Shown here: positions 24,029 to 64,000 of the stretch, one piece after another
How positions within the stretch are numbered: the stretch's first letter is position 1
Layout: each line of letters starts with the position of its first letter
DNA from: Chloroflexota bacterium
GTDB lineage: Bacteria > Chloroflexota > UBA11872 > VXOZ01
Assembly: GCA_965221905.1 (NCBI GenBank)
Contig: OZ244922.1
Coordinates: 97,394 to 161,393 of the forward strand
Reading direction: 5' to 3'
Length of the DNA: 64,000 bases
The notes under the pieces: model-generated
Told to the model about the DNA's origin: nothing
Seen by the model: only the letters and a program-made list of their open reading frames with translations
Databases searched by the model: none
Made by a program: the position numbers and the translations under genes

Positions 24029-24427
24029 TCTGACTAAAGACTAGATGGTGGTCATTATAGTGTATGCGAGACACTTCGTACGGGGGCAAACCCAAGACTT
24101 TAGTGCAACGGCCTATGCGCACTGGCTCATTCGCTGGGTTACTCAAGGAGGTAGTGATGCGACGCTCTTTTGGTGTCCAAGAGAAGAAGCCATTCATCCT
24201 TCGGCCCTTCGACATGCTCAGGACAGGCACGCTCAGGATGAACGGTACGAACATCTCCAACGGAAAGTCGCCGCTTGTGGCTGGCAAAGTGAGGTATAAA
24301 CGGCAATGAGGCAAGTGTTTCTGACTCACTCCCTCTATGGTGGGGGGGAATTAGTTACAGGAGTCTTGCACTAAAGAGCGGGGGACAAGCCCCCGCTCTA
24401 CGGTTTCGGAGTCGCATTTAGGAGGAT

Positions 24428-51397: not shown

Positions 51398-52159
51398 TTA
51401 CGACCAGCCGATAACGGGAGTGACAATCCAGGGGTGAAGCAATGGGTCTGATGAGAACCGCGGAAAGCTGTCTGGCCAAGGCAACTCAATGAGGTGGTTC
51501 TTGCTTGCCGCGTCAATCAGGTCCTGACTGTGTCCTACACCAAGCAAGTAGACCCTCACGCCGCGACTCTTGAGTTCGTTGATCATTTCCGCGTATCCGC
51601 CATCTCTCGTGATAAGTACGAGAATGGTGCGTGACGGGTCCTGGCCGCAGTAGGTACTACAGTGATGGATTATCTTCTCGTCCAAGTCATCGCTTTCTTC
51701 CCACACGTCCCAGTCATGGTTTTCTAACGTCTCCGTAGGGTCGAAGAAACTGTAACCCGGGGTGGAGCGGACGAATGCCTTGAATTTTCGTTGGGCCGTA
51801 GTCGAAAATCGCTCTTCAAGCTCTGCCCTCAGCCAGGCATCCAAATGGGGCAAGTGTTGAATTTGTGCAGCTAGATTCGGAAAATCCCATACAACCAGCA
51901 TGCGAGTGGGTTTCATAATCTGCTTCTTCCTCTTCTTAAAGAAACTGGGGGTAATACCTCTTTCCATCGCAATCGAATGGATTGCAGCGAGTGACGTGGC
52001 ATCTGGCGTAGTGGCCCCAGTCTCCCAACGTGATACCGTGTTTTGCGGTATACCGAGAGAGGTTGCGAGCTTAGCTTGTGACAGGCTAAGTCTCTTTCGC
52101 AACTCTACGATGCTCTCTGGGCTAAAGCTATACCGTTGCTGCTTTACGGGTGCCATCAT
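51398..52159 (-). CDS. HTH-XRE / NYN (LabA-like PIN-type RNase) fusion protein
   Basis: 253 aa; HTH LSQAKLATSLGIPQNTVSRWETG; NYN segments MLVVWDFPN and LVLITRDGGYAEMINELKSRGVRVYLLG; lower GC. Confidence 0.65.
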   Translation of the reverse strand: MMAPVKQQRYSFSPESIVELRKRLSLSQAKLATSLGIPQNTVSRWETGATTPDATSLAAIHSIAMERGITPSFFKKRKKQIMKPTRMLVVWDFPNLAAQIQHLPHLDAWLRAELEERFSTTAQRKFKAFVRSTPGYSFFDPTETLENHDWDVWEESDDLDEKIIHHCSTYCGQDPSRTILVLITRDGGYAEMINELKSRGVRVYLLGVGHSQDLIDAASKNHLIELPWPDSFPRFSSDPLLHPWIVTPVIGWS

Positions 52160-54974: not shown

Positions 54975-55181
54975 TTACTTGATACCAGCGCCGGGTAGGA
55001 GTTTCTTGACGCGCTTCCTTTCGCCGTCGGGAGATTCGAAATAGTGCGCCGTAGTACGCAGCGTGCGCGGCTTCTTCTTGCGGCGCAAGTGGTTCATGCT
55101 CCCTTTAGGCCGCATCAGCTTGCCGGTGCCGCTGACCTTGAACCGCTTGCGCGTGCTCTTATGTGTCTTCATCTTAGGCAC
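54975..55181 (-). CDS. rpmI: 50S ribosomal protein L35 (GTG start)
   Basis: (V)[20 protein letters not shown]...; canonical L35 N-terminus. Confidence 0.85.
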
Positions 55182-55322
55182 GAGTCTATCGCCTCTCTTC
55201 ATTTAGAGGAATCGAGTGCTATGGTATCATACACGGAGCGGTGCGCACAACCTGCCAGCCGTCCAGATGTACCCCGTGTTTTGCCTCACTCGCGCTTCGC
55301 ATCCGTTCTTGGGAGACAGGGC

Positions 55323-57314
55323 ATGCCTCCGTTTCAAATGGTAACAGACCTAGCGCCGCGCGGCGATCAGCCCCAGGCGATTGACCAACTGGTCAGCGGG
55401 TGCCATGCCGAATACCCGTTCCAGACCCTTCTCGGCGTAACCGGTTCCGGTAAGACTCTCACCATGGCCCGGGTCATCCAAGCGATTCAGAAGCCGGCGC
55501 TTGTTCTTGCCCCCAACAAAACCCTGGCCGCGCAGCTTTTTTCCGAGTTTCGCGACTTCTTTCCGGAGAATGCGGTCGAGTACTTCGTCTCCTACTACGA
55601 CTACTACCAGCCCGAGGCGTACCTCCCGCGCACGGATACGTACATAGAAAAGGACTCGGACATCAACGAGGAGGTAGAGAAGCTCCGGCTCTCGGCCACA
55701 CGGTCTCTCATGGAGCGGCCGGATGTCGTTATCGTCGCGAGCGTCTCCTGCATCTACGGCATGGGCTCGCCCCACGACTACGGGCAAGTGGTCGTACCGC
55801 TGAACGTTGGCGAGCAGTACCGCCGCCAGAACGTGTTGCGGCATCTGAACGATATTCAGTACGAGAGGAACAACGTAGATTTTAAGCGGGGCACATATCG
55901 GGTGAAGGGCGATGTGCTCGACATCTTTCCGGCCTATGGCGATACCGCAATCCGCATAGACTTCTTTGGCGACGAAATAGACCGCATCATCGAGATCGAT
56001 CCGCTTACCGGTGAGATTCTGGATACGCGGCAAGCGATCAATATCTATCCGGCGAGCCACTTCGTGACGCCGGTGGAGCGCATTGACGAGGCCGTCAAGA
56101 GCATCGAGACGGAGCTCGACGAGCACGTCGCCGTGCTGCAAAGCGAGGGTAAGCTGCTCGAAACGCAGCGCCTGCTGCAACGCACCCGGTTCGATCTGGA
56201 GATGCTGCGCGAGACCGGCCACTGCAAGGGCATCGAGAACTATAGCCGCCATCTCGACGGGCGTAACGCCGGCGATCCCTCGTGGACGCTGCTGGACTAT
56301 TTCCCCAAGGACTTCCTCATGTTCATCGATGAGTCTCACGTCGCCGTGCCGCAACTGCGCGGCATGCATGCCGGGGACCGCTCGCGTAAGCAAGTGCTGG
56401 TGGATTACGGCTTTCGCTTGCCGAGTGCGCTCGATAACCGCCCGCTCATGTTTCAGGAGCTAGAGCAGCGTCTCAATCAGGTGATCTTCGTTTCCGCGAC
56501 GCCCAATATGTACGAACGCGAACGGAGCAGCCAGGTGGTGGAGCAGATTATCCGCCCCACCGGTCTGGTGGACCCTTCTATCGAAATACAGCCCACTACC
56601 GGTCAGATCGACCATCTCGTCAGTCATATTCGTCAGCGGGTGGCGCAGCACGAGCGTGTGCTGGTGACAACGCTGACAAAGCGCATGGCGGAGCAACTCG
56701 CCGATTACCTCAACGAAATCGGTATCAAGGTGCACTACCTGCACTCGGAGATCGATACCCTGGAGCGTGTGGAAATTCTGCGCGACCTCCGGCTGGGCGT
56801 GTACGACGTGGTAGTGGGCATCAACCTGCTGCGTGAAGGTCTAGACTTGCCGGAAGTATCGCTGGTGGCGATTCTGGATGCGGATAAGGAAGGCTACCTG
56901 CGCAGCGAGACCTCGCTGGTGCAGACCATCGGCCGCGCGGCGCGTCACATCAACGGCCACGTGGTCCTCTACGCCGATGTGGTGACCAATTCTATGCGCC
57001 GCGCCATCGACGAAACCTACCGCCGCCGCGATAGGCAGCTTGCCCACAACGATCAACACGGCATTAAGCCGGAGAGCGTGCACAAGGCGATTCGCGATAT
57101 TACCGATACCATTCGCGCCGTAGCGGAAGAGGAATCAAGCTACCAGGCGGAAAATAAGCCGCTCTCGGCCAAAGAGGCGCTGAAGCTCATCAAGGAGCTT
57201 GAGAAGCAGATGCGCAAGGCGGCGAGAGATCTGGACTTCGAGCGCGCCGCGCTCGTCCGCGATCAAATCCGCGAAATCCGCGCCGGCCAGCAGGAAGTGA
57301 TAACAGTCGAGTAG
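55323..57314 (+). CDS. uvrB: Excinuclease ABC subunit B
   Basis: About 663 aa from [20 protein letters not shown]; Walker A GVTGSGKT, helicase motifs, C-terminal UVR domain ([10 protein letters not shown]). Confidence 0.9.
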
Positions 57315-57612
57315 GCGGGCCCGGGGTTAGGCGACTGGCGTCGGCTGACCGGGGTTGCCCGACGCTTTGCATAAGTCTCCCTCTCCCAAGAGTGGGAGAG
57401 GGTCGGGGTGAGGGTTGAACTGCTAACTTCAAGAGCACGGGCGGTGAACGGGCGCGTCAAGTTGCACGCCCACGTCTGACCAACTTGCTAACTGCATGCT
57501 CCAGGACTCCCACTCCGCTTTGCTCGGCTGGTAGTCGGGATGCACGATCTCTACTTCGCGCGGCGCCGGCTTGTCCGTCATGGCTTCCCTCCGAGGTGTT
57601 CTTGTATAGACC

Positions 57613-58880
57613 GGGGACATAGGTTACACATGTTCGGGGACATAGGTAACAGATGTTCGGGGACATAGGTTACACCATAAGGCATGGAGAATCTTTTAGA
57701 TGGAGGAGGACCATGCCTTGGAAAGTGGGTACACCCATGTCTTTGCGCAAAGAGTTTATTGCTCTGGCACAATCTGACGGAGTGAACATGAGCGAGTTGT
57801 GTCGTCGCATGGAAATCAGCCGCAAGACCGGCTACAAGTGGCTGCGGCGGTACGCGCAGGCCGGAGGGCAGAGCCTTCACGATCTGCCCAGGCGCCCGCA
57901 CTCCAGTCCGCAGCAGACGAGCCGGGAGATGGAGGAACGCATCATAGCGTTGCGCCAGGCGCATCCCACCAAGGGTGCGCATGTGCTGGCCAGGATGTTG
58001 CAGGATCGCGGCTATACGGGCGTGCCTGCCAAGAGTACGATCACTGCCATTCTCAGACGACATGGGCTCATCGATGAATCCGAGGCTGCCAAGCACACAC
58101 CCTATGTACGCTTTGAGCGTGCCGAACCCAACGAGCTGTGGCAGATGGACTTCAAGGGACACATTGCCGTGCAACACCACCGCTGCCATCCGTTCACCCT
58201 CCTGGACGATCACTCTCGCTTCAACCTGGCGCTGCGGGCCTGTGCCAACGAGCAGGGAAACACGGTCCAAGACCGCCTCACCCACGTCTTTCGGCGTTAC
58301 GGCTTGCCTCAGGCCATGCTGATAGAAAACGGCTCCCCCTGGGGTAGCGACAGCGCTCATCCCTTTACTCCCCTCACCGTCTGGCTCATGCAACTGGGTA
58401 TCAGCGTGCACCACAGCAGACCGTACCATCCCCAAACACTCGGCAAGCTGGAACGCTTCCACCGCTCGCTCAAGAGCGAGTTGCTTACAGGCCGCACCTT
58501 CACCGACCTCCCCCACTGCCAACGTGCCTTCGACACCTGGCGTGACTTCTACAACTTGGAGCGCCCACACTATGCCCTCGACCTCGACACCCCGGTCAGC
58601 CGATACACACCCAGTGGTAAAACTTTCCCCGAGACCCTACCCGCCATCGACTACGCCCCCGACGACCACGTGCGTTCTGTGGATGTCTCCGGTCGCATCT
58701 CTTTCCAGGGCAGACCACTGCGTGTGGGGAAGGCCTTCACGCATAAGCGGGTCGCGCTCAGACCCACCCAAACCGACGGCGTATGGGACGTTTACTTCTC
58801 CGTCCAACGCATAAAAACCCTAGACCTCAATGAACAAAATGTGTAACCTATGTCCCCGAACATCTGTTACCTATCTCCCC
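57613..58880 (+). mobile_element. IS481-family insertion sequence with tandem 23-bp subterminal repeats
   Basis: Left end: three units ggggacataggt(t/a)aca(c/g)atgttc (57613-57676); right end: inverted gtgtaacctatgtcccc-gaacatctgttacctatctcccc (58841-58880); single rve transposase inside. Confidence 0.75.
57712..58846 (+). CDS. IS481-family DDE transposase
   Basis: 378 aa; N-terminal HTH (LCRRMEISRKTGYKWLRRY), rve core WQMDFKGH ... LIENGSPW ... RPYHPQTLGKLERFHRSL. Confidence 0.85.
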
Positions 58881-59116
58881 AGTCTGTACACGTATCAAGT
58901 ACGGGGCAGGCTCTAGCCCTCTGCCTCAGTAAGAGAGGACTTTTGGCCCCCAGGTGAGGGGATTCTTGCTCCCGCCAAGGTTTTGCAAAGGTCTCCATAG
59001 GGACAAACGCAGCTCATTAGAGGTATGAATGGGCTTCGGCTTTTTCTCGCCAATTGGGAGAAGTGCGCGCGGAATACAGGCCGGATTGCAGATGCAGCAA
59101 AGGAAATGCGGGCGTA

Positions 59117-59788
59117 TTAGCAGGCGACTGCGTCCGGTAGCTCGGCGACGCTTGCAATGACGCTCTGGCAGGCGTGGGCGTTGAATGCTGCCTGTGTGGT
59201 GACACCGGAGAGCACGGCGAGGAACGGCACGTCTGCCCGCTGCGCGGCCTTGGCATCGGTCACGCTGTCACCCACGTAGCAGGTGTTCGCCGGTACTCCC
59301 CCCAGCGCCGACATGGCCGTGAGCAGGCCCTCGGGGTCCGGTTTGGAGGCAATGACGTCTTCTCTCCCCACAATCACGTCGAAGTCCGCACGTAAGTCCT
59401 CCCGTTCCAGCACGTGCTCGATGCGGTAGCGGAACTTAGAGGAGACGATGCCCAGCGCAAGACCTCTACGCTTTAGGGCGTGAGCCGCTCCTGCCACGTA
59501 CGGAAATATCACCGTGTGGTCAGCCATGATGGCGTCCGCCTGCCGGATGAAGAGACGGTCGAATTCCTTACTCGCAGCCGGAAACCGGTCTGCCGGGACG
59601 CTGGTCCCGACAATGTATGCAAACGCGTCCTCAAGCGAGAGGCCGATGGTCTGCCGAATGACGTCCGGCGGCGCGACAGGCAACCCCAGCGCTTCCAAGG
59701 CGAAATTCGTACAGGCGATCACGCCGGTAGATGAGTCCGCCAGCGTGTAGTCGAAGTCGAATAGGATTGTGCGCAGATGAGAAGGCAT
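59117..59788 (-). CDS. HAD-IA family hydrolase (phosphatase)
   Basis: 223 aa; motif I ILFDFDYTLADS; HAD motifs II-IV present. Confidence 0.8.
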   Translation of the reverse strand: MPSHLRTILFDFDYTLADSSTGVIACTNFALEALGLPVAPPDVIRQTIGLSLEDAFAYIVGTSVPADRFPAASKEFDRLFIRQADAIMADHTVIFPYVAGAAHALKRRGLALGIVSSKFRYRIEHVLEREDLRADFDVIVGREDVIASKPDPEGLLTAMSALGGVPANTCYVGDSVTDAKAAQRADVPFLAVLSGVTTQAAFNAHACQSVIASVAELPDAVAC

Positions 59789-59839
59789 AGCAATACAGAA
59801 GGAGCTAATGGGGTTAGAGGCAGGTTACACGTAGCCTGC

Positions 59840-60364
59840 TTAGGTTCTTTTACCGGTAAGGTGAAGAATTTCAAGCTTGCTAACCGACGCGCCCTCCGCT
59901 CGCTTAAAGTCTGAGTCAGCAGTTACGAAAGTTCCCGCGTGTTTCTCTGCGAGGGCGAGGTGAAGGGCATCATCAGGGGTAAAATCAAGGTCGCGCATGT
60001 AGCGGATTGCCGCTGAGGTCATTGCTGGAGCGAAGGTCTTGCTATCCGGAACAACGTCTACCGGATGACCGGCTTCCTGCCAATCGTGAATCGCTTGCGC
60101 GACGCCTTCAATCCAGTCGCCGTGCTTTTCGAAGGCCGCTGCCCTATGCCTGCGAAATGCGCTCCTTGAAAAGCGAGAATCGGGCCGTTGCCTATTGAGC
60201 GTACGGTAAGATTCCCTGAACATCCCCCACCACGCTTCTTGCACAGTGATCATAGACACAAGGATTGGAGCTCCAGCGACAAGCAACTCTCCAATGACAT
60301 CCTTACAACTCTTGTAGAGGTCGTGGTTACTTACTACATAACCAACAAGCACGTTCGCATCTAG
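59840..60364 (-). pseudogene. PIN-domain (VapC-like) gene whose 5' end has been cut off by the IS5 insertion
   Basis: PIN acidic residues (LDANVL, TVQEA, FVTADSDF); reading across the IS junction reconnects in frame to 61555-61605, which encodes MLVKRWQPGHSFQSPVY immediately downstream of the 61607..61969 gene. Confidence 0.6.
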
Positions 60365-61550
60365 GAAAACTCTGAACAAGTCCCTGGCATAGTATCATAG
60401 CAAGAAAGCAGGATACGGTGAGGAGCTGGGTAATGGAGCAACCGACGTTTGCCGACTTGGAGTACGCGCAGAAGAAGCGCAAGACGCGCCGGGAGAAGTT
60501 CTTGGAGCGGATGGACGCGCTGCTCCCGTGGGCGGAGATGGAGGCGCGCATTGCGCCGTACTATCCCAAGCCAGGGCGGGGGCGGCGGCCGTATCCCTTG
60601 TCGGTAATGCTGCGGATACACTGCGTGCAGTTGTTCTACAACCTGAGCGATCCTGGGATGGAGGACATGCTGTACGAGGTAGAACCGGTGCGGCGGTTCG
60701 TGGGGCTGCGGCTGTCAGAGGCGCTGCCGGACGAGACGACTATTCTGCACTTTCGGCATTTGCTGGAGAAGCACCGGTTAGGAGAGGGGTTGTTGGCGGA
60801 GATCAACGCGCATTTGGCAGGTCGGGGCTTGCGGCTGCGAGCGGGGACGGTAGTGGACGCGACCATCATCGCGGCGCCGACATCGACGAAGAACCGAGAG
60901 GGGGAGCGAGACCCGGCGATGCGGCAGGTGAAGAAGGGGAACCAGTATTACTTTGGGATGAAGCTGCACATCGGCGTCGACGCACAGACGGGGCTCGTGC
61001 ATAGCTTCACCACCACATCGGCCAACGTGCACGACGTAACGCAAGCGGCGGCGTTGCTGCACGGCGCAGAGCAGCAGGTGTGGGGAGACGCCGGGTACGT
61101 GGGGGTGCAGAAGCGACCGGAGCATCAGGGGCGCGCCGTAGCGTGGCAGGTGGCGCTCAAGCCGGGGCTGCGGCGGAAACTGGCGCCTGAGAGCGCGGCG
61201 GCGCTGGCAGAGCAGCGCAAAGCATCGGTTAGGGCCAAAGTAGAGCATCCGTTCCTGTGGGTGAAGCGGCACTTCGGCTACGCCACGGTGCGCTACCGGG
61301 GTCTGTCCAAGAACAGGCAACGGCTGGCGTTGCTGCTGGGGCTGACCAATGTGATGACGGCCGCACGCCAGTTGGCAACATGACACGGGAGCAGTGCGCC
61401 CAAAACACGGCCAGGAGCGTATTGCGCTTCCAACGGGACCGCATCAAAGCCAAAACAGCCCCTCCCACATGCCAAGACACACCTCAAACCACCCCACAAT
61501 CCCGCACATACCCATAAACCGATGCATATCCCGACTTGCTCAGACCTTTC
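60365..61550 (+). mobile_element. IS5-family insertion sequence (E. coli IS5-like, about 1186 bp) with 4-bp CTAG target-site duplication
   Basis: IRL ggaaaactctgaacaagtcc (60365-) versus IRR reverse complement ggaaaggtctgagcaagtcg (ending 61550); flanking CTAG at 60361-60364 and 61551-61554. Confidence 0.85.
60433..61383 (+). CDS. IS5-family DDE transposase (InsH-like)
   Basis: 316 aa; collinear with IS5 InsH (QPTFADLEY...GRRPYPL..MLRIHC...NLSD.GMED.LYE...DATII.AP.STKN...DP.M...KKGNQ..FGMK.HIGVDA..GL.HS..TT.AN.HD...). Confidence 0.9.
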   Translation: MEQPTFADLEYAQKKRKTRREKFLERMDALLPWAEMEARIAPYYPKPGRGRRPYPLSVMLRIHCVQLFYNLSDPGMEDMLYEVEPVRRFVGLRLSEALPDETTILHFRHLLEKHRLGEGLLAEINAHLAGRGLRLRAGTVVDATIIAAPTSTKNREGERDPAMRQVKKGNQYYFGMKLHIGVDAQTGLVHSFTTTSANVHDVTQAAALLHGAEQQVWGDAGYVGVQKRPEHQGRAVAWQVALKPGLRRKLAPESAAALAEQRKASVRAKVEHPFLWVKRHFGYATVRYRGLSKNRQRLALLLGLTNVMTAARQLAT

Positions 61551-61606
61551 CTAGATAGACAGGTGACTGAAACGAATGACCGGGCTGCCACCTCTTCACG
61601 AGCATG

Positions 61607-61969
61607 CTAAAGGTCCGGTAGCGTGGTAAGTTCTACAACATCGAGTCCAGGTGAGCCGGGAACCATACCCATGTGCCGCACAAATGCCGTGAACAGTTTC
61701 GGAGTCATTCGCTGACGGTAGTAATCGAGGTCGACCTCGGCAAACCGCCGCTGGTATTCGGATTTCTTCACATAGAAGTCTGGAGCAACCTTGATCCATG
61801 GTTCTTCATGGGCCGATGGCTTCTCTTGCACAGCACTTCTCTGCGGGGCCCCACTTAACCACTGGAATTTTTCAGTGTCTGGATTCTTGGGAGAAAAGAC
61901 ATTTACTAGTGCGCCGCTTTGATCGGTGACTTCTCTATCAAGTGCTATGCTGAAATCTGTAGACATCAC
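61607..61969 (-). CDS. Hypothetical protein, directly upstream of the original PIN gene start (possible antitoxin or partner)
   Basis: 120 aa; stop 1 nt before the reconstructed PIN ATG (61605); low GC. Confidence 0.4.
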   Translation of the reverse strand: MMSTDFSIALDREVTDQSGALVNVFSPKNPDTEKFQWLSGAPQRSAVQEKPSAHEEPWIKVAPDFYVKKSEYQRRFAEVDLDYYRQRMTPKLFTAFVRHMGMVPGSPGLDVVELTTLPDL

Positions 61970-62643
61970 CCACCTGCAGTCTTACTGAGATCCGATTGCA
62001 CGAGTTGAATGGCGGACTCTTGCCACGAACGAGCGTCCGCAAGGACATTTCCTAGTTCCTGAGAGGTGTATTCCATCTCAACATTCCACTGAAACCCTAA
62101 ACTCATGAATAGAAATCGCTCTGGCATAGTGTCCCTTTCCCACCGGAGAAACGTTTCCTGCAGTTGCTTAGGTTCCATTGGGCCAAGTTGGACGTGCTTA
62201 AACACATGGCCTTCGTCCCGGTCAATTGTAACGCCAAGATCAGTTGCCCGCTGAATTAGCGCCGTATCTTGGAGATATGTCCGCTCAAATAGCGAACAGA
62301 GTTCGCGAAACGATAGTGCATAGGGTTCTATGAATATAGAGTCAATGCGCACTTTTGTCAGACTGGGAAAGGAAGAAACGTCATTAAGCTCAGAGAATGC
62401 CTGCAAGGCATTCTGTACAACCATTTCGGTTGTTCTGTCTCCTTCCTGCTCGAAAGAGAACCCGCGCATTTGGAATCCGATGCGCTGCTTATTTTCCTCA
62501 TTCTCGAAGTACGTAGTTTCGCCCTTTAGTTCAGAATTCTCATCACCGCTGGCTACGCGAAACAAACCACGTACTTCCAGCCAAGGCCGCAAAGCCTCTG
62601 TGAACTCTAGCCGGATAATTGTTCTTACAAGCTCTACAGCCAT
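61966..62643 (-). CDS. Hypothetical protein, first gene of the low-GC three-gene unit
   Basis: 225 aa; overlaps the next gene by 4 nt; no recognisable domain. Confidence 0.4.
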   Translation of the reverse strand: MAVELVRTIIRLEFTEALRPWLEVRGLFRVASGDENSELKGETTYFENEENKQRIGFQMRGFSFEQEGDRTTEMVVQNALQAFSELNDVSSFPSLTKVRIDSIFIEPYALSFRELCSLFERTYLQDTALIQRATDLGVTIDRDEGHVFKHVQLGPMEPKQLQETFLRWERDTMPERFLFMSLGFQWNVEMEYTSQELGNVLADARSWQESAIQLVQSDLSKTAGG

Positions 62644-62994
62644 TTTCTACTCGTCAACTGGCATGCCAATTCCCAAGACAATAGTTCACTAACGTCTACC
62701 AGGCCATAAGCCAACTATACTAAACCGTTGCGGATCGCATTACAATCGAGGCAAAGCAACTAACGGCAAGCCGAAGTCTAAAACGAATGAACGAGCCGGC
62801 AATGTAGGATTCTTGGCTAAGTCTGCCCCGCTCGCATGTTGTCGAGATCTTGAAGAGCCACGCTTGGGTCATTTGAATATGTAGTGACCCGTCTGGGGAA
62901 CGGTGATTACTTAAGTGCCGTAACTACGAACACTAGGCCCTTCTCATAGCAAATCGCGAATGCAGTGAGACTTCGCAAGCGGGGAAGGGCAGTC

Positions 62995-64000
62995 CTAGGA
63001 AGACGAAGGCGTGGGGGTGGCTTGCGCGGACTGAATCTGCATTTGGATGGCGTTGTGGGTGTCGGCGGCGGCTTGCTGCGCGGTGGCTTGACCGGTGAGG
63101 ACGGGGAAGACGAGCGAGGCGAAGATGAGGAACGCAAGCCATTCCGGCGCATCGGCGTCGATGTATTGACTTTGCTCCATGCTTTCCAAGAGCACCAGCG
63201 AGTCATTGACCGTAAGCGTCTGGTGCACGGAACGCAGCGTCTCCGCGCTAACGCGTATGGCGGGCATGCTCAGGATCAGAGAGGCTGCTTGCAGGAGTGG
63301 GTCCAGCACCTCGTAGGCAGCATCCGGTTGGTTGCTCTCCTGCGCCACGCCTGCCATGTGCTCCGTCATCCCCCACGTCGCCGCATCGTTGCCGCGAGGA
63401 ACCTCGACGAGCTCAAGGGAAGCACGTCCGGCGCCGCGCCAAAAAACCTCTGCCTTGACCATACTACCCACCATGGCGATCTGGCCGGAAAGCATCATGT
63501 CCCGCGCCTTGCCGGTAAGGTTAATAGTGAGATTGTCCGTGCGGTAATCTACGACGTTGAGGGGCGGCGCAACCTCATGGTGCAGGATCAAATTTGCTTG
63601 GAATTGTAACGCATCGATGACCCCGGGGTGCGTGACGTCCCAGTTGCGGTCTTGAAAGAGGGTGCTGCCATCTTGCCAAGCCATGGCAAAGAACGGCGGG
63701 ACTAACGGTGCTTGTAACGTGCCCCAGACACGCGGCGTGGCAGTTTCGTCGTTGAGCGATTGAGCCAGCGTTAAGAAGTCCTGCCAGCTCCAGTTATCCT
63801 CCGGCAGAGGGGTATTCGATTGAGAAAAAAGCGCCGGGTTGTACAGCAGGGCACAAACCGACGCCGCAAGAGGGAGAGCATGCAGCGTACCGCGGTAGGC
63901 GCCGCTACTTAGGATGTGCGGCCAGAAGTTATCAGTAGAGAAATCAATATCACGACGCGTATACTCGGTGAGCTCGCGCGTCACGCCTTGTTGTGCCAGA
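62995..64000 (-). CDS. ABC transporter substrate-binding protein (family 1), N-terminus beyond the window
   Basis: C-terminal about 330 aa of an SBP; Ala/Gln/Thr-rich C-terminal tail; reading frame is open to the window edge. Confidence 0.6.
   Translation of the reverse strand, partial: LAQQGVTRELTEYTRRDIDFSTDNFWPHILSSGAYRGTLHALPLAASVCALLYNPALFSQSNTPLPEDNWSWQDFLTLAQSLNDETATPRVWGTLQAPLVPPFFAMAWQDGSTLFQDRNWDVTHPGVIDALQFQANLILHHEVAPPLNVVDYRTDNLTINLTGKARDMMLSGQIAMVGSMVKAEVFWRGAGRASLELVEVPRGNDAATWGMTEHMAGVAQESNQPDAAYEVLDPLLQAASLILSMPAIRVSAETLRSVHQTLTVNDSLVLLESMEQSQYIDADAPEWLAFLIFASLVFPVLTGQATAQQAAADTHNAIQMQIQSAQATPTPSSS

Follow-up and report, generated by a model that had tools for sequence, protein, structure and literature searches.

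Locus Organization

The locus described here lies on contig OZ244922.1 of a Chloroflexota bacterium, within an analyzed stretch of 64,000 nucleotides (the window; positions are counted from its first letter). Between positions 59,840 and 62,643 the window contains an operon of three minus-strand genes, A, B and C, the last of which encodes a PIN domain protein and is split by an insertion sequence (IS) of the IS5 family. The original prediction, made from the letters of the DNA, held that removal of the IS restores a VapC-like toxin gene that had ended the operon, and that the operon is a candidate toxin-antitoxin (TA) or defense module, now inactivated. The features of the locus are listed below.

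59840..60364, minus strand: 3' fragment of the PIN gene (C), codons 18-191 and the stop codon; D19, E60 and D149 invariant, D167 nearly so
59840..60379, minus strand: hybrid open reading frame (ORF) of 179 aa, with a TTG start inside the left IS end (MFRVF), continuing into LDANVL...
60361..60364: target-site duplication CTAG, copy 1; relatives have one CTAG here
60365..61550, plus strand: IS5-family insertion sequence, 1186 bp, delimited by its inverted repeats and by the duplicated CTAG
60365..60382: left terminal inverted repeat, GAAAACTCTGAACAAGTC, identical to the reverse-complemented right end at 15 of 18 positions
60433..61383, plus strand: transposase, 316 aa from the ATG, with a GAGGAG motif 7 nt 5' of it; 321 aa from the GTG at 60418
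61533..61550: right terminal inverted repeat, GAAAGGTCTGAGCAAGTC
61551..61554: target-site duplication CTAG, copy 2
61555..61605, minus strand: 5' fragment of the PIN gene (C), codons 1-17, MLVKRWQPGHSFQSPVY; W6, P15, V16 and Y17 nearly invariant in the 190-aa PIN subfamily
61607..61966, minus strand: gene B, 119 aa from the ATG or 120 aa from a GTG 3 nt upstream; putative antitoxin or adaptor
61966..62643, minus strand: gene A, 225 aa, the first gene of the operon
62656..62671: palindrome AACTGGCATGCCAATT, 16 bp, 12-28 nt upstream of the A start; possible operator or RNA hairpin
62727..62755, minus strand: conserved promoter-like block TTGTAA-17 nt-TAGTAT, assigned from its conservation

Reconstruction of the PIN Gene

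Excision of the IS together with one CTAG fuses MLVKRWQPGHSFQSPVY to LDANVLVGYV... and yields a minus-strand ORF of 191 aa; stop codons in the reconstructed frame were looked for and none was found. The reconstructed protein matches Pfam family PF01850 (E = 4.5e-14, residues 16-174), and the match crosses the junction. Among 5.8 billion proteins searched there were intact 191-aa homologues (P0021-P0063), up to 95% identical to the reconstructed protein with 100% coverage. The proposal that excision restores an in-frame VapC-like gene is thus borne out by the ORF, by the domain match and by full-length homologues.

Comparison with contigs of relatives that lack the IS, in line with a check named in the original prediction, revealed the empty site. 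Seven contigs from relatives with an intact PIN gene (L001-L007) are colinear with the window on either side of the IS. In two of them (L001 and L004), the window flanks map with an overlap of exactly 4 bases, and a single CTAG stands at the junction. An IS5-family element thus transposed into the CTAG within PIN codons 18-19 and duplicated it. Neither fragment of the PIN gene has acquired a stop codon or a frameshift and, because neither has decayed, the insertion is recent. The dN/dS of the PIN gene against its nearest relative is 0.24, with no relaxed selection. Genes A and B are intact after the insertion.

The active-site residues of the PIN protein are strongly conserved. D19, E60 and D149 are invariant across the family, including members of 35% identity and two 129-aa PIN proteins of distant modules, and D167 is nearly invariant. 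The closest solved structure to the family profile is the VapC ribonuclease 7by2_B (E = 9e-4); the single sequence had no match in the Protein Data Bank (PDB). Relative to classic VapC proteins, about 15 aa are added at the N-terminus, with W6, P15, V16 and Y17 nearly invariant, and a conserved basic insertion of 49 residues (64-112; pI 11.2) is present.

What remains of the PIN gene could still be read as the 179-aa hybrid ORF, which retains strand beta-1 (VFLD for VYLD), all catalytic residues and the whole PIN core. On the strand of the hybrid ORF, the IS end showed no credible promoter in the consensus scan, and just about 1 nt separates the TTG from a Shine-Dalgarno-like AGGGA, a poor spacing. 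Leftover PIN expression from the hybrid ORF is unlikely on these signals. The PIN toxin is most likely silenced because the promoter, the coupling to B and 17 N-terminal residues, conserved positions included, have been lost. The predicted inactivation is therefore likely for the split PIN gene, with the qualification that the hybrid ORF still encodes the PIN core.

The IS5-Family Element

The identity, the limits and the target duplication of the inserted element are established. Its transposase matched the NCBIfam model for IS5-family transposases (NF033581) at E = 1.4e-98 over profile positions 1-284 of 285, and Pfam matches were to DDE_Tnp_1 and DUF772. As read on the plus strand, the right end is ...GACTTGCTCAGACCTTTC. 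The terminal repeats, predicted as 20-bp imperfect inverted repeats, are imperfect, with 15 identical positions of 18, or 15 of 20 over the longer span. IS5 duplicates 4-bp YTAR targets (PMC5009759), and CTAG conforms to YTAR. Since CTAG is strongly under-represented in the window, with 82 occurrences compared to about 238 expected from base composition (roughly a three-fold deficit), its presence on both flanks by chance is very unlikely (probability about 1e-6). Five of the 82 sites lie inside or just upstream of the operon, besides the two duplicated copies, and the scarcity of CTAG limits the number of preferred IS5 targets in the window.

A copy of the same IS (92% identical) with the same ends and CTAG on both sides was found in a further Chloroflexota genome, at positions 409-1614 of locus L013 (OZ244145), where it precedes the operon by about 5.5 kb. 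This is a different insertion site, and copies at different sites are what is expected of a mobile element. The 64-kb window itself held no second copy of the element. The transposase frame of the L013 copy is apparently split into ORFs of 266 and 109 aa and may be frameshifted or decaying.

The element resembles IS5 (IS5 family, IS5 group) in its length of about 1.2 kb, its single DDE transposase gene, its short imperfect terminal inverted repeats and its 4-bp YTAR duplication, but it has only 64-67% nucleotide identity to annotated IS5-family elements, which were found on plasmids. The exact transposase sequence had no match in the contig index. By its sequence, the element is a new, active-looking Chloroflexota member of the IS5 family. 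The 1186-bp IS5-like element with CTAG on both sides was thus reproduced, and the transposase family, the repeats, the empty sites and the L013 copy all agree with it.

Operon Structure and Conservation

The predicted operon, with products of 225 aa, about 120 aa and a PIN protein encoded by overlapping or abutting genes, was confirmed. A and B overlap by 1 nt if B starts at the ATG and by 4 nt if it starts at the GTG; the 120-aa length given for the middle ORF corresponds to the GTG, and gene callers choose the ATG, giving 119 aa. The B stop codon occupies 61607-61609 and the PIN ATG begins at 61605, which leaves the 1-nt gap that had been predicted, with equal spacing in relatives. The GC content had been put at about 48% and was measured at 50.4% for the three genes together (48.4% for A, 50.4% for B and 53.1% for C), compared to 57.8% for the window. 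Across the clade, A is at about 0.48, B at about 0.50 and C at 0.53-0.56, against 0.59-0.69 for the flanks. The low GC content of the operon is a conserved property of the clade and no mark of a recent island.

The gene order SBP-A-B-C-HAD was present in all 13 related loci, whose hosts are Chloroflexota metagenome-assembled genomes. Over these loci the flanking proteins range from 98% down to 74% identity to those of the window, with a parallel divergence of A, B and C. At appreciable divergence dN/dS is 0.11-0.24 for A, B and C (0.14-0.21 for B), with similar values for the flanking genes, and the low ratios indicate that A, B and C are real, selected genes. Two 91-aa genes upstream of A (in L008 and L025) were considered as a fourth component and ruled out, being mutually unrelated.

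A 350-bp intergenic region of low GC content lies upstream of A. Within its promoter-like block, TAGTAT and the flanking bases are invariant over seven genomes and the remainder of the 350 bp diverges; the block scores under the threshold of the consensus scan. The palindrome before A is kept in the closest relatives, occurs in L015 as the variant TTGACATGTCGA, which preserves the dyad symmetry, and is absent from L016. No RNA family was found by Rfam over positions 57000-64000.

The PIN gene was predicted to end the operon. It is indeed the third gene, and in relatives the same strand carries a HAD-hydrolase gene 52-58 nt further downstream, with no terminator detected on the minus strand after the PIN gene in the consensus scan. 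The transcript may read through into the HAD gene, in which case the IS may be polar on it. A 10-bp stem-loop at 59818-59841 overlaps the PIN stop, between the PIN and HAD genes; its T-run is on the plus strand, and it scores as a terminator for the opposite strand only.

Products of Genes A and B

Gene A encodes an acidic protein (pI 4.66) whose family comprises 178 clusters at E <= 1e-3 in a HMMER search of 1.84 billion representative proteins, nearly all of them 215-230 aa long. A had no match in Pfam, NCBIfam, PADLOC or PHROGs, and none of 72 diverse family members matched Pfam or NCBIfam. The best AlphaFold2 (AF2) model of A shows a duplicated beta-alpha-beta3-alpha unit (pLDDT 71, pTM 0.69); the other four models were worse. 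The best PDB matches of this model were TATA-binding proteins (TBP), and they were weak (E about 1e-3, TM-score 0.26-0.35); the best viral structure match was an unnamed protein with a TM-score of 0.59. A TBP-like fold is a lead for A rather than a result, and the acidity of the protein argues against simple nucleic acid binding. Two candidate relatives of A were rejected. The archaeal Connectase MJ0548 (profile E = 0.03) vanished when a second family alignment was used and was taken as a chance match, and TIGR04255, considered as a possible relative, gave no match in NCBIfam.

B has 20 homologues, each of which shares its contig with A, the PIN gene or both. The N-terminal 50 or so residues of B are variable and predicted to be disordered and the C-terminal 65 aa are conserved, ending in the almost invariant tail VPGSPGLDVVELTTLPD. 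The AF2 model has pLDDT below 50 at residues 1-50 and of 72-89 at residues 51-100, and residues 55-100 are modeled with moderate confidence as one small unit of a hairpin plus three helices. Foldseek returned only meaningless matches for this model, and the B profile found nothing in the PDB. B had no match in Pfam, NCBIfam (E <= 1), PADLOC (E <= 1) or PHROGs. The profile searches of the 225-aa and 120-aa proteins that had been recommended thus returned no family match in these four collections, and A and B belong to no described family.

Wider Distribution and Exchange of Partners

Clustering of the A family gave one clade of 53-59 representatives, which includes the window (clade I), and a second of 68 with other architectures (clade II). 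The same A-B-PIN order was found in unrelated contexts with PIN homologues of about 45% identity (L008-L011) and with A homologues of about 35% identity (L019-L021). A metagenome scan with a narrower A alignment gave four loci. In clade I and in a clade II subcluster of 11 representatives, the A-B-PIN arrangement was seen at all loci that begin with A and extend far enough downstream (loci counted: L012-L017, L019-L021 and L023-L025).

Members of the A family at about 18-20% identity (L023, L024 and L025) are followed by a protein of 133-148 aa and then by a classic 129-aa PIN protein. The middle proteins of these modules are homologous to one another over their C-terminal 67 aa, and homology between them and clade I B was unsupported (hhalign probability 0.15%). 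Both kinds of middle protein have a variable N-terminus and a conserved C-terminus. The middle gene tracks the PIN subtype, since the middle proteins that accompany the 129-aa PIN proteins are not detectably homologous to B and A is shared. Such covariation is as expected of a cognate inhibitor or antitoxin.

Other partners follow A elsewhere in the family. In L027, L028 and L031, the last an operon that adjoins a serine recombinase gene, they are small proteins for which transmembrane segments are predicted; in L029 and L030 they are two small soluble proteins of 85 and 75 aa. Searches of viral contigs and of plasmids detected no member of the A family.

Comparison with Known Systems

The module is most readily compared with VapBC. 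As in VapBC, the last gene encodes a PIN protein with four conserved acidic residues, and a small gene lies 1 nt upstream of it; the upstream product has a variable half that is predicted to be disordered and covaries with the PIN subtype, and the closest solved relative of the PIN profile is a VapC. VapBC modules are autoregulated through an operator in the promoter; here the palindrome at 62656-62671, a possible operator, is partly conserved, with one symmetric variant. In contrast to VapBC, there are three genes rather than two, with A always upstream and a 1- or 4-nt overlap in the A-B-PIN loci. B has no AbrB, RHH, Phd or HTH domain, and its conserved half is the C-terminal one. The PIN protein is about 60 aa longer owing to the N-terminal extension and the basic insertion, and it scored 20 bits with the NCBIfam VapC model against a cutoff of 73.6.

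The omega-epsilon-zeta and paaR-paaA-parE systems are ordered as accessory protein, antitoxin and toxin. A-B-C has the same order of accessory, putative antitoxin and toxin genes, but A resembles none of omega, PaaR and SecB in sequence or fold, and the toxin here is a PIN protein. In toxin-antitoxin-chaperone (TAC) systems such as HigB-HigA-SecB, the chaperone is encoded by the last gene. A shares its acidity with SecB-type chaperones; however, it has no Pfam match, and Foldseek on the PDB gave TBP-like rather than SecB-like matches. The module is no TAC system because it has no SecB-like chaperone gene.

Three-component PIN systems have been predicted previously, with DUF4411, an HTH protein and a DUF955 protease or with COG2405/DUF3368 (Matelska et al., 2017; PMC5499597). 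The module resembles them in that a PIN toxin candidate shares an operon with two more genes. It differs from them in that its PIN protein matches only the generic PF01850 and not DUF4411 or DUF3368, and in that its partners are neither HTH proteins nor DUF955 proteases. No defense profile of PADLOC-DB v2 matched A, B or the PIN protein at E <= 1.

Neighboring Features

Several other features of the window were recorded. An IS481-family element (57603-58890) lies between uvrB (55044-57314) and the HAD gene; it encodes a 397-aa transposase with rve, HTH_32 and LZ_Tnp_IS481 matches and has 55-nt terminal inverted repeats with an internal repeated motif. Synteny with relatives ends at about 59065-59118, beside this element, and may mark a rearrangement. 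A 253-aa protein encoded on the minus strand (51398-52159) combines an N-terminal XRE-type HTH (HTH_3, with a weak match to the MqsA antitoxin) with a C-terminal NYN domain, which has a PIN-like nuclease fold, and may be a single-chain regulator-nuclease. A 54-bp stretch (24193-24246) has 89% identity to a segment about 5 kb upstream of the operon in L004, L012 and L017, where the surroundings do not align, and could represent a short element that is conserved or repeated.

Proposed Function

The module is probably an undescribed three-part type II TA-like system in which the IS recently knocked out the PIN gene. C would be the RNase toxin, B its direct inhibitor and A an accessory component. 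With its complete D-E-D-D active site and the 49-residue basic insertion, C would act as a Mg2+-dependent, VapC-like RNase. B, which is translationally coupled to C, would bind and inhibit C through its conserved C-terminal domain and acidic tail, and A, the constant first-gene partner, could be a stabilizer or regulator of B or a sensor of the trigger. By cutting C from the operon promoter and from its coupling to B and by dropping the 17 N-terminal residues, the IS would have silenced the toxin. Insertion into the toxin gene, as seen here, is what a live TA module would tolerate, in contrast to insertion into B.

Several observations weigh against this proposal. The 179-aa hybrid ORF could still give the PIN core, and toxicity and neutralization are inferred. 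B has no recognizable DNA-binding domain, and neither A nor B matches a TA or defense profile. A is an acidic protein with a weak fold assignment, given the low TM-scores to TBP and the poorer quality of four of the five AF2 models. In this clade the module is inherited vertically at a fixed site and evolves at about the rate of its housekeeping neighbors; inheritance of this kind is not typical of TA loci. The view of the locus as a candidate TA or defense module thus keeps its basis in a PIN protein with four catalytic acidic residues and an abutting small upstream gene, and is weakened by the lack of a TA or defense profile match, by the lack of a DNA-binding domain in B and by a distribution that is vertical rather than patchy.

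An anti-phage (abortive infection) system in which A senses infection and controls interchangeable effectors, either a PIN protein restrained by B or small membrane proteins, would account for the constant first gene and its varying partners (B with the 190-aa PIN, B' with the 129-aa PIN, transmembrane proteins, soluble pairs), and the IS would then have disarmed the effector. The serine recombinase beside the L031 operon would fit such a system. Fusions of TBP-like domains to RNase toxins are on record (PMC3710099) and offer a weak precedent for a partner that recognizes nucleic acids, and immune genes interrupted by IS elements are known (PMC10359306). However, no PADLOC model matches A, B or the PIN protein, A was not detected in the viral contigs and plasmids, the neighbors in the Chloroflexota clade, in L028 and in L029 are housekeeping genes rather than defense islands, and the pattern of variable partners comes from just five distant loci, so we regard an anti-phage role as rather unlikely. 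A more inclusive suggestion, which we put forward tentatively and with somewhat less reserve, is that A is the constant hub or sensor of an undescribed modular conflict system, TA or anti-phage, that employs a PIN RNase with a subtype-specific inhibitor in two branches and a small membrane protein or a soluble pair in others, a pattern drawn from about 20 loci; the window would then hold a natural effector knockout.

The vertical inheritance noted above could also point to a non-toxic, housekeeping-type RNA-processing complex, made up of a PIN RNase and two partners and dispensable in this strain. The chromosomal position is fixed although flanking proteins have diverged to 74-79% identity, purifying selection is on par with that on neighboring genes, the PIN protein is unusually long (190 aa) with its conserved basic insertion, and B has no antitoxin-type domain. 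Such a complex is nonetheless improbable when set against a family that is rare and scattered (178 clusters among 1.84 billion representatives) and found in unrelated genomic contexts, a GC content persistently below that of the flanks, the swapping of partners in other branches, and the close coupling of A, B and C, in which a small gene directly adjoins the PIN gene, as is the pattern in vapBC. Very improbable is a PIN protein that is still active, expressed from the hybrid ORF (59840-60379, minus strand) by read-through or from an outward IS promoter, with MFRVF replacing the first 17 residues. Beta-1 and all catalytic residues are kept, and the Pfam PIN domain begins only at residue 16. 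Against this, the IS end offers no promoter-like site on the minus strand, AGGGA is too close to the TTG, the nearly invariant W6 and P15 are lost, and a toxin uncoupled from B would be selected against.

Implications

The IS event itself is routine gene inactivation. It matters for annotation only: this copy of the PIN gene is a pseudogene, and the IS adds a new Chloroflexota member to the IS5 family. The operon that it interrupts is an undescribed, compact three-gene PIN module with two orphan protein families, best filed as TA-like. If toxicity and neutralization were confirmed, the module would represent a new three-part architecture among PIN toxin systems and would assign a role to the orphan A family, with its roughly 180 clusters. 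For comparisons between strains, the naturally disrupted copy and its intact relatives are already at hand.

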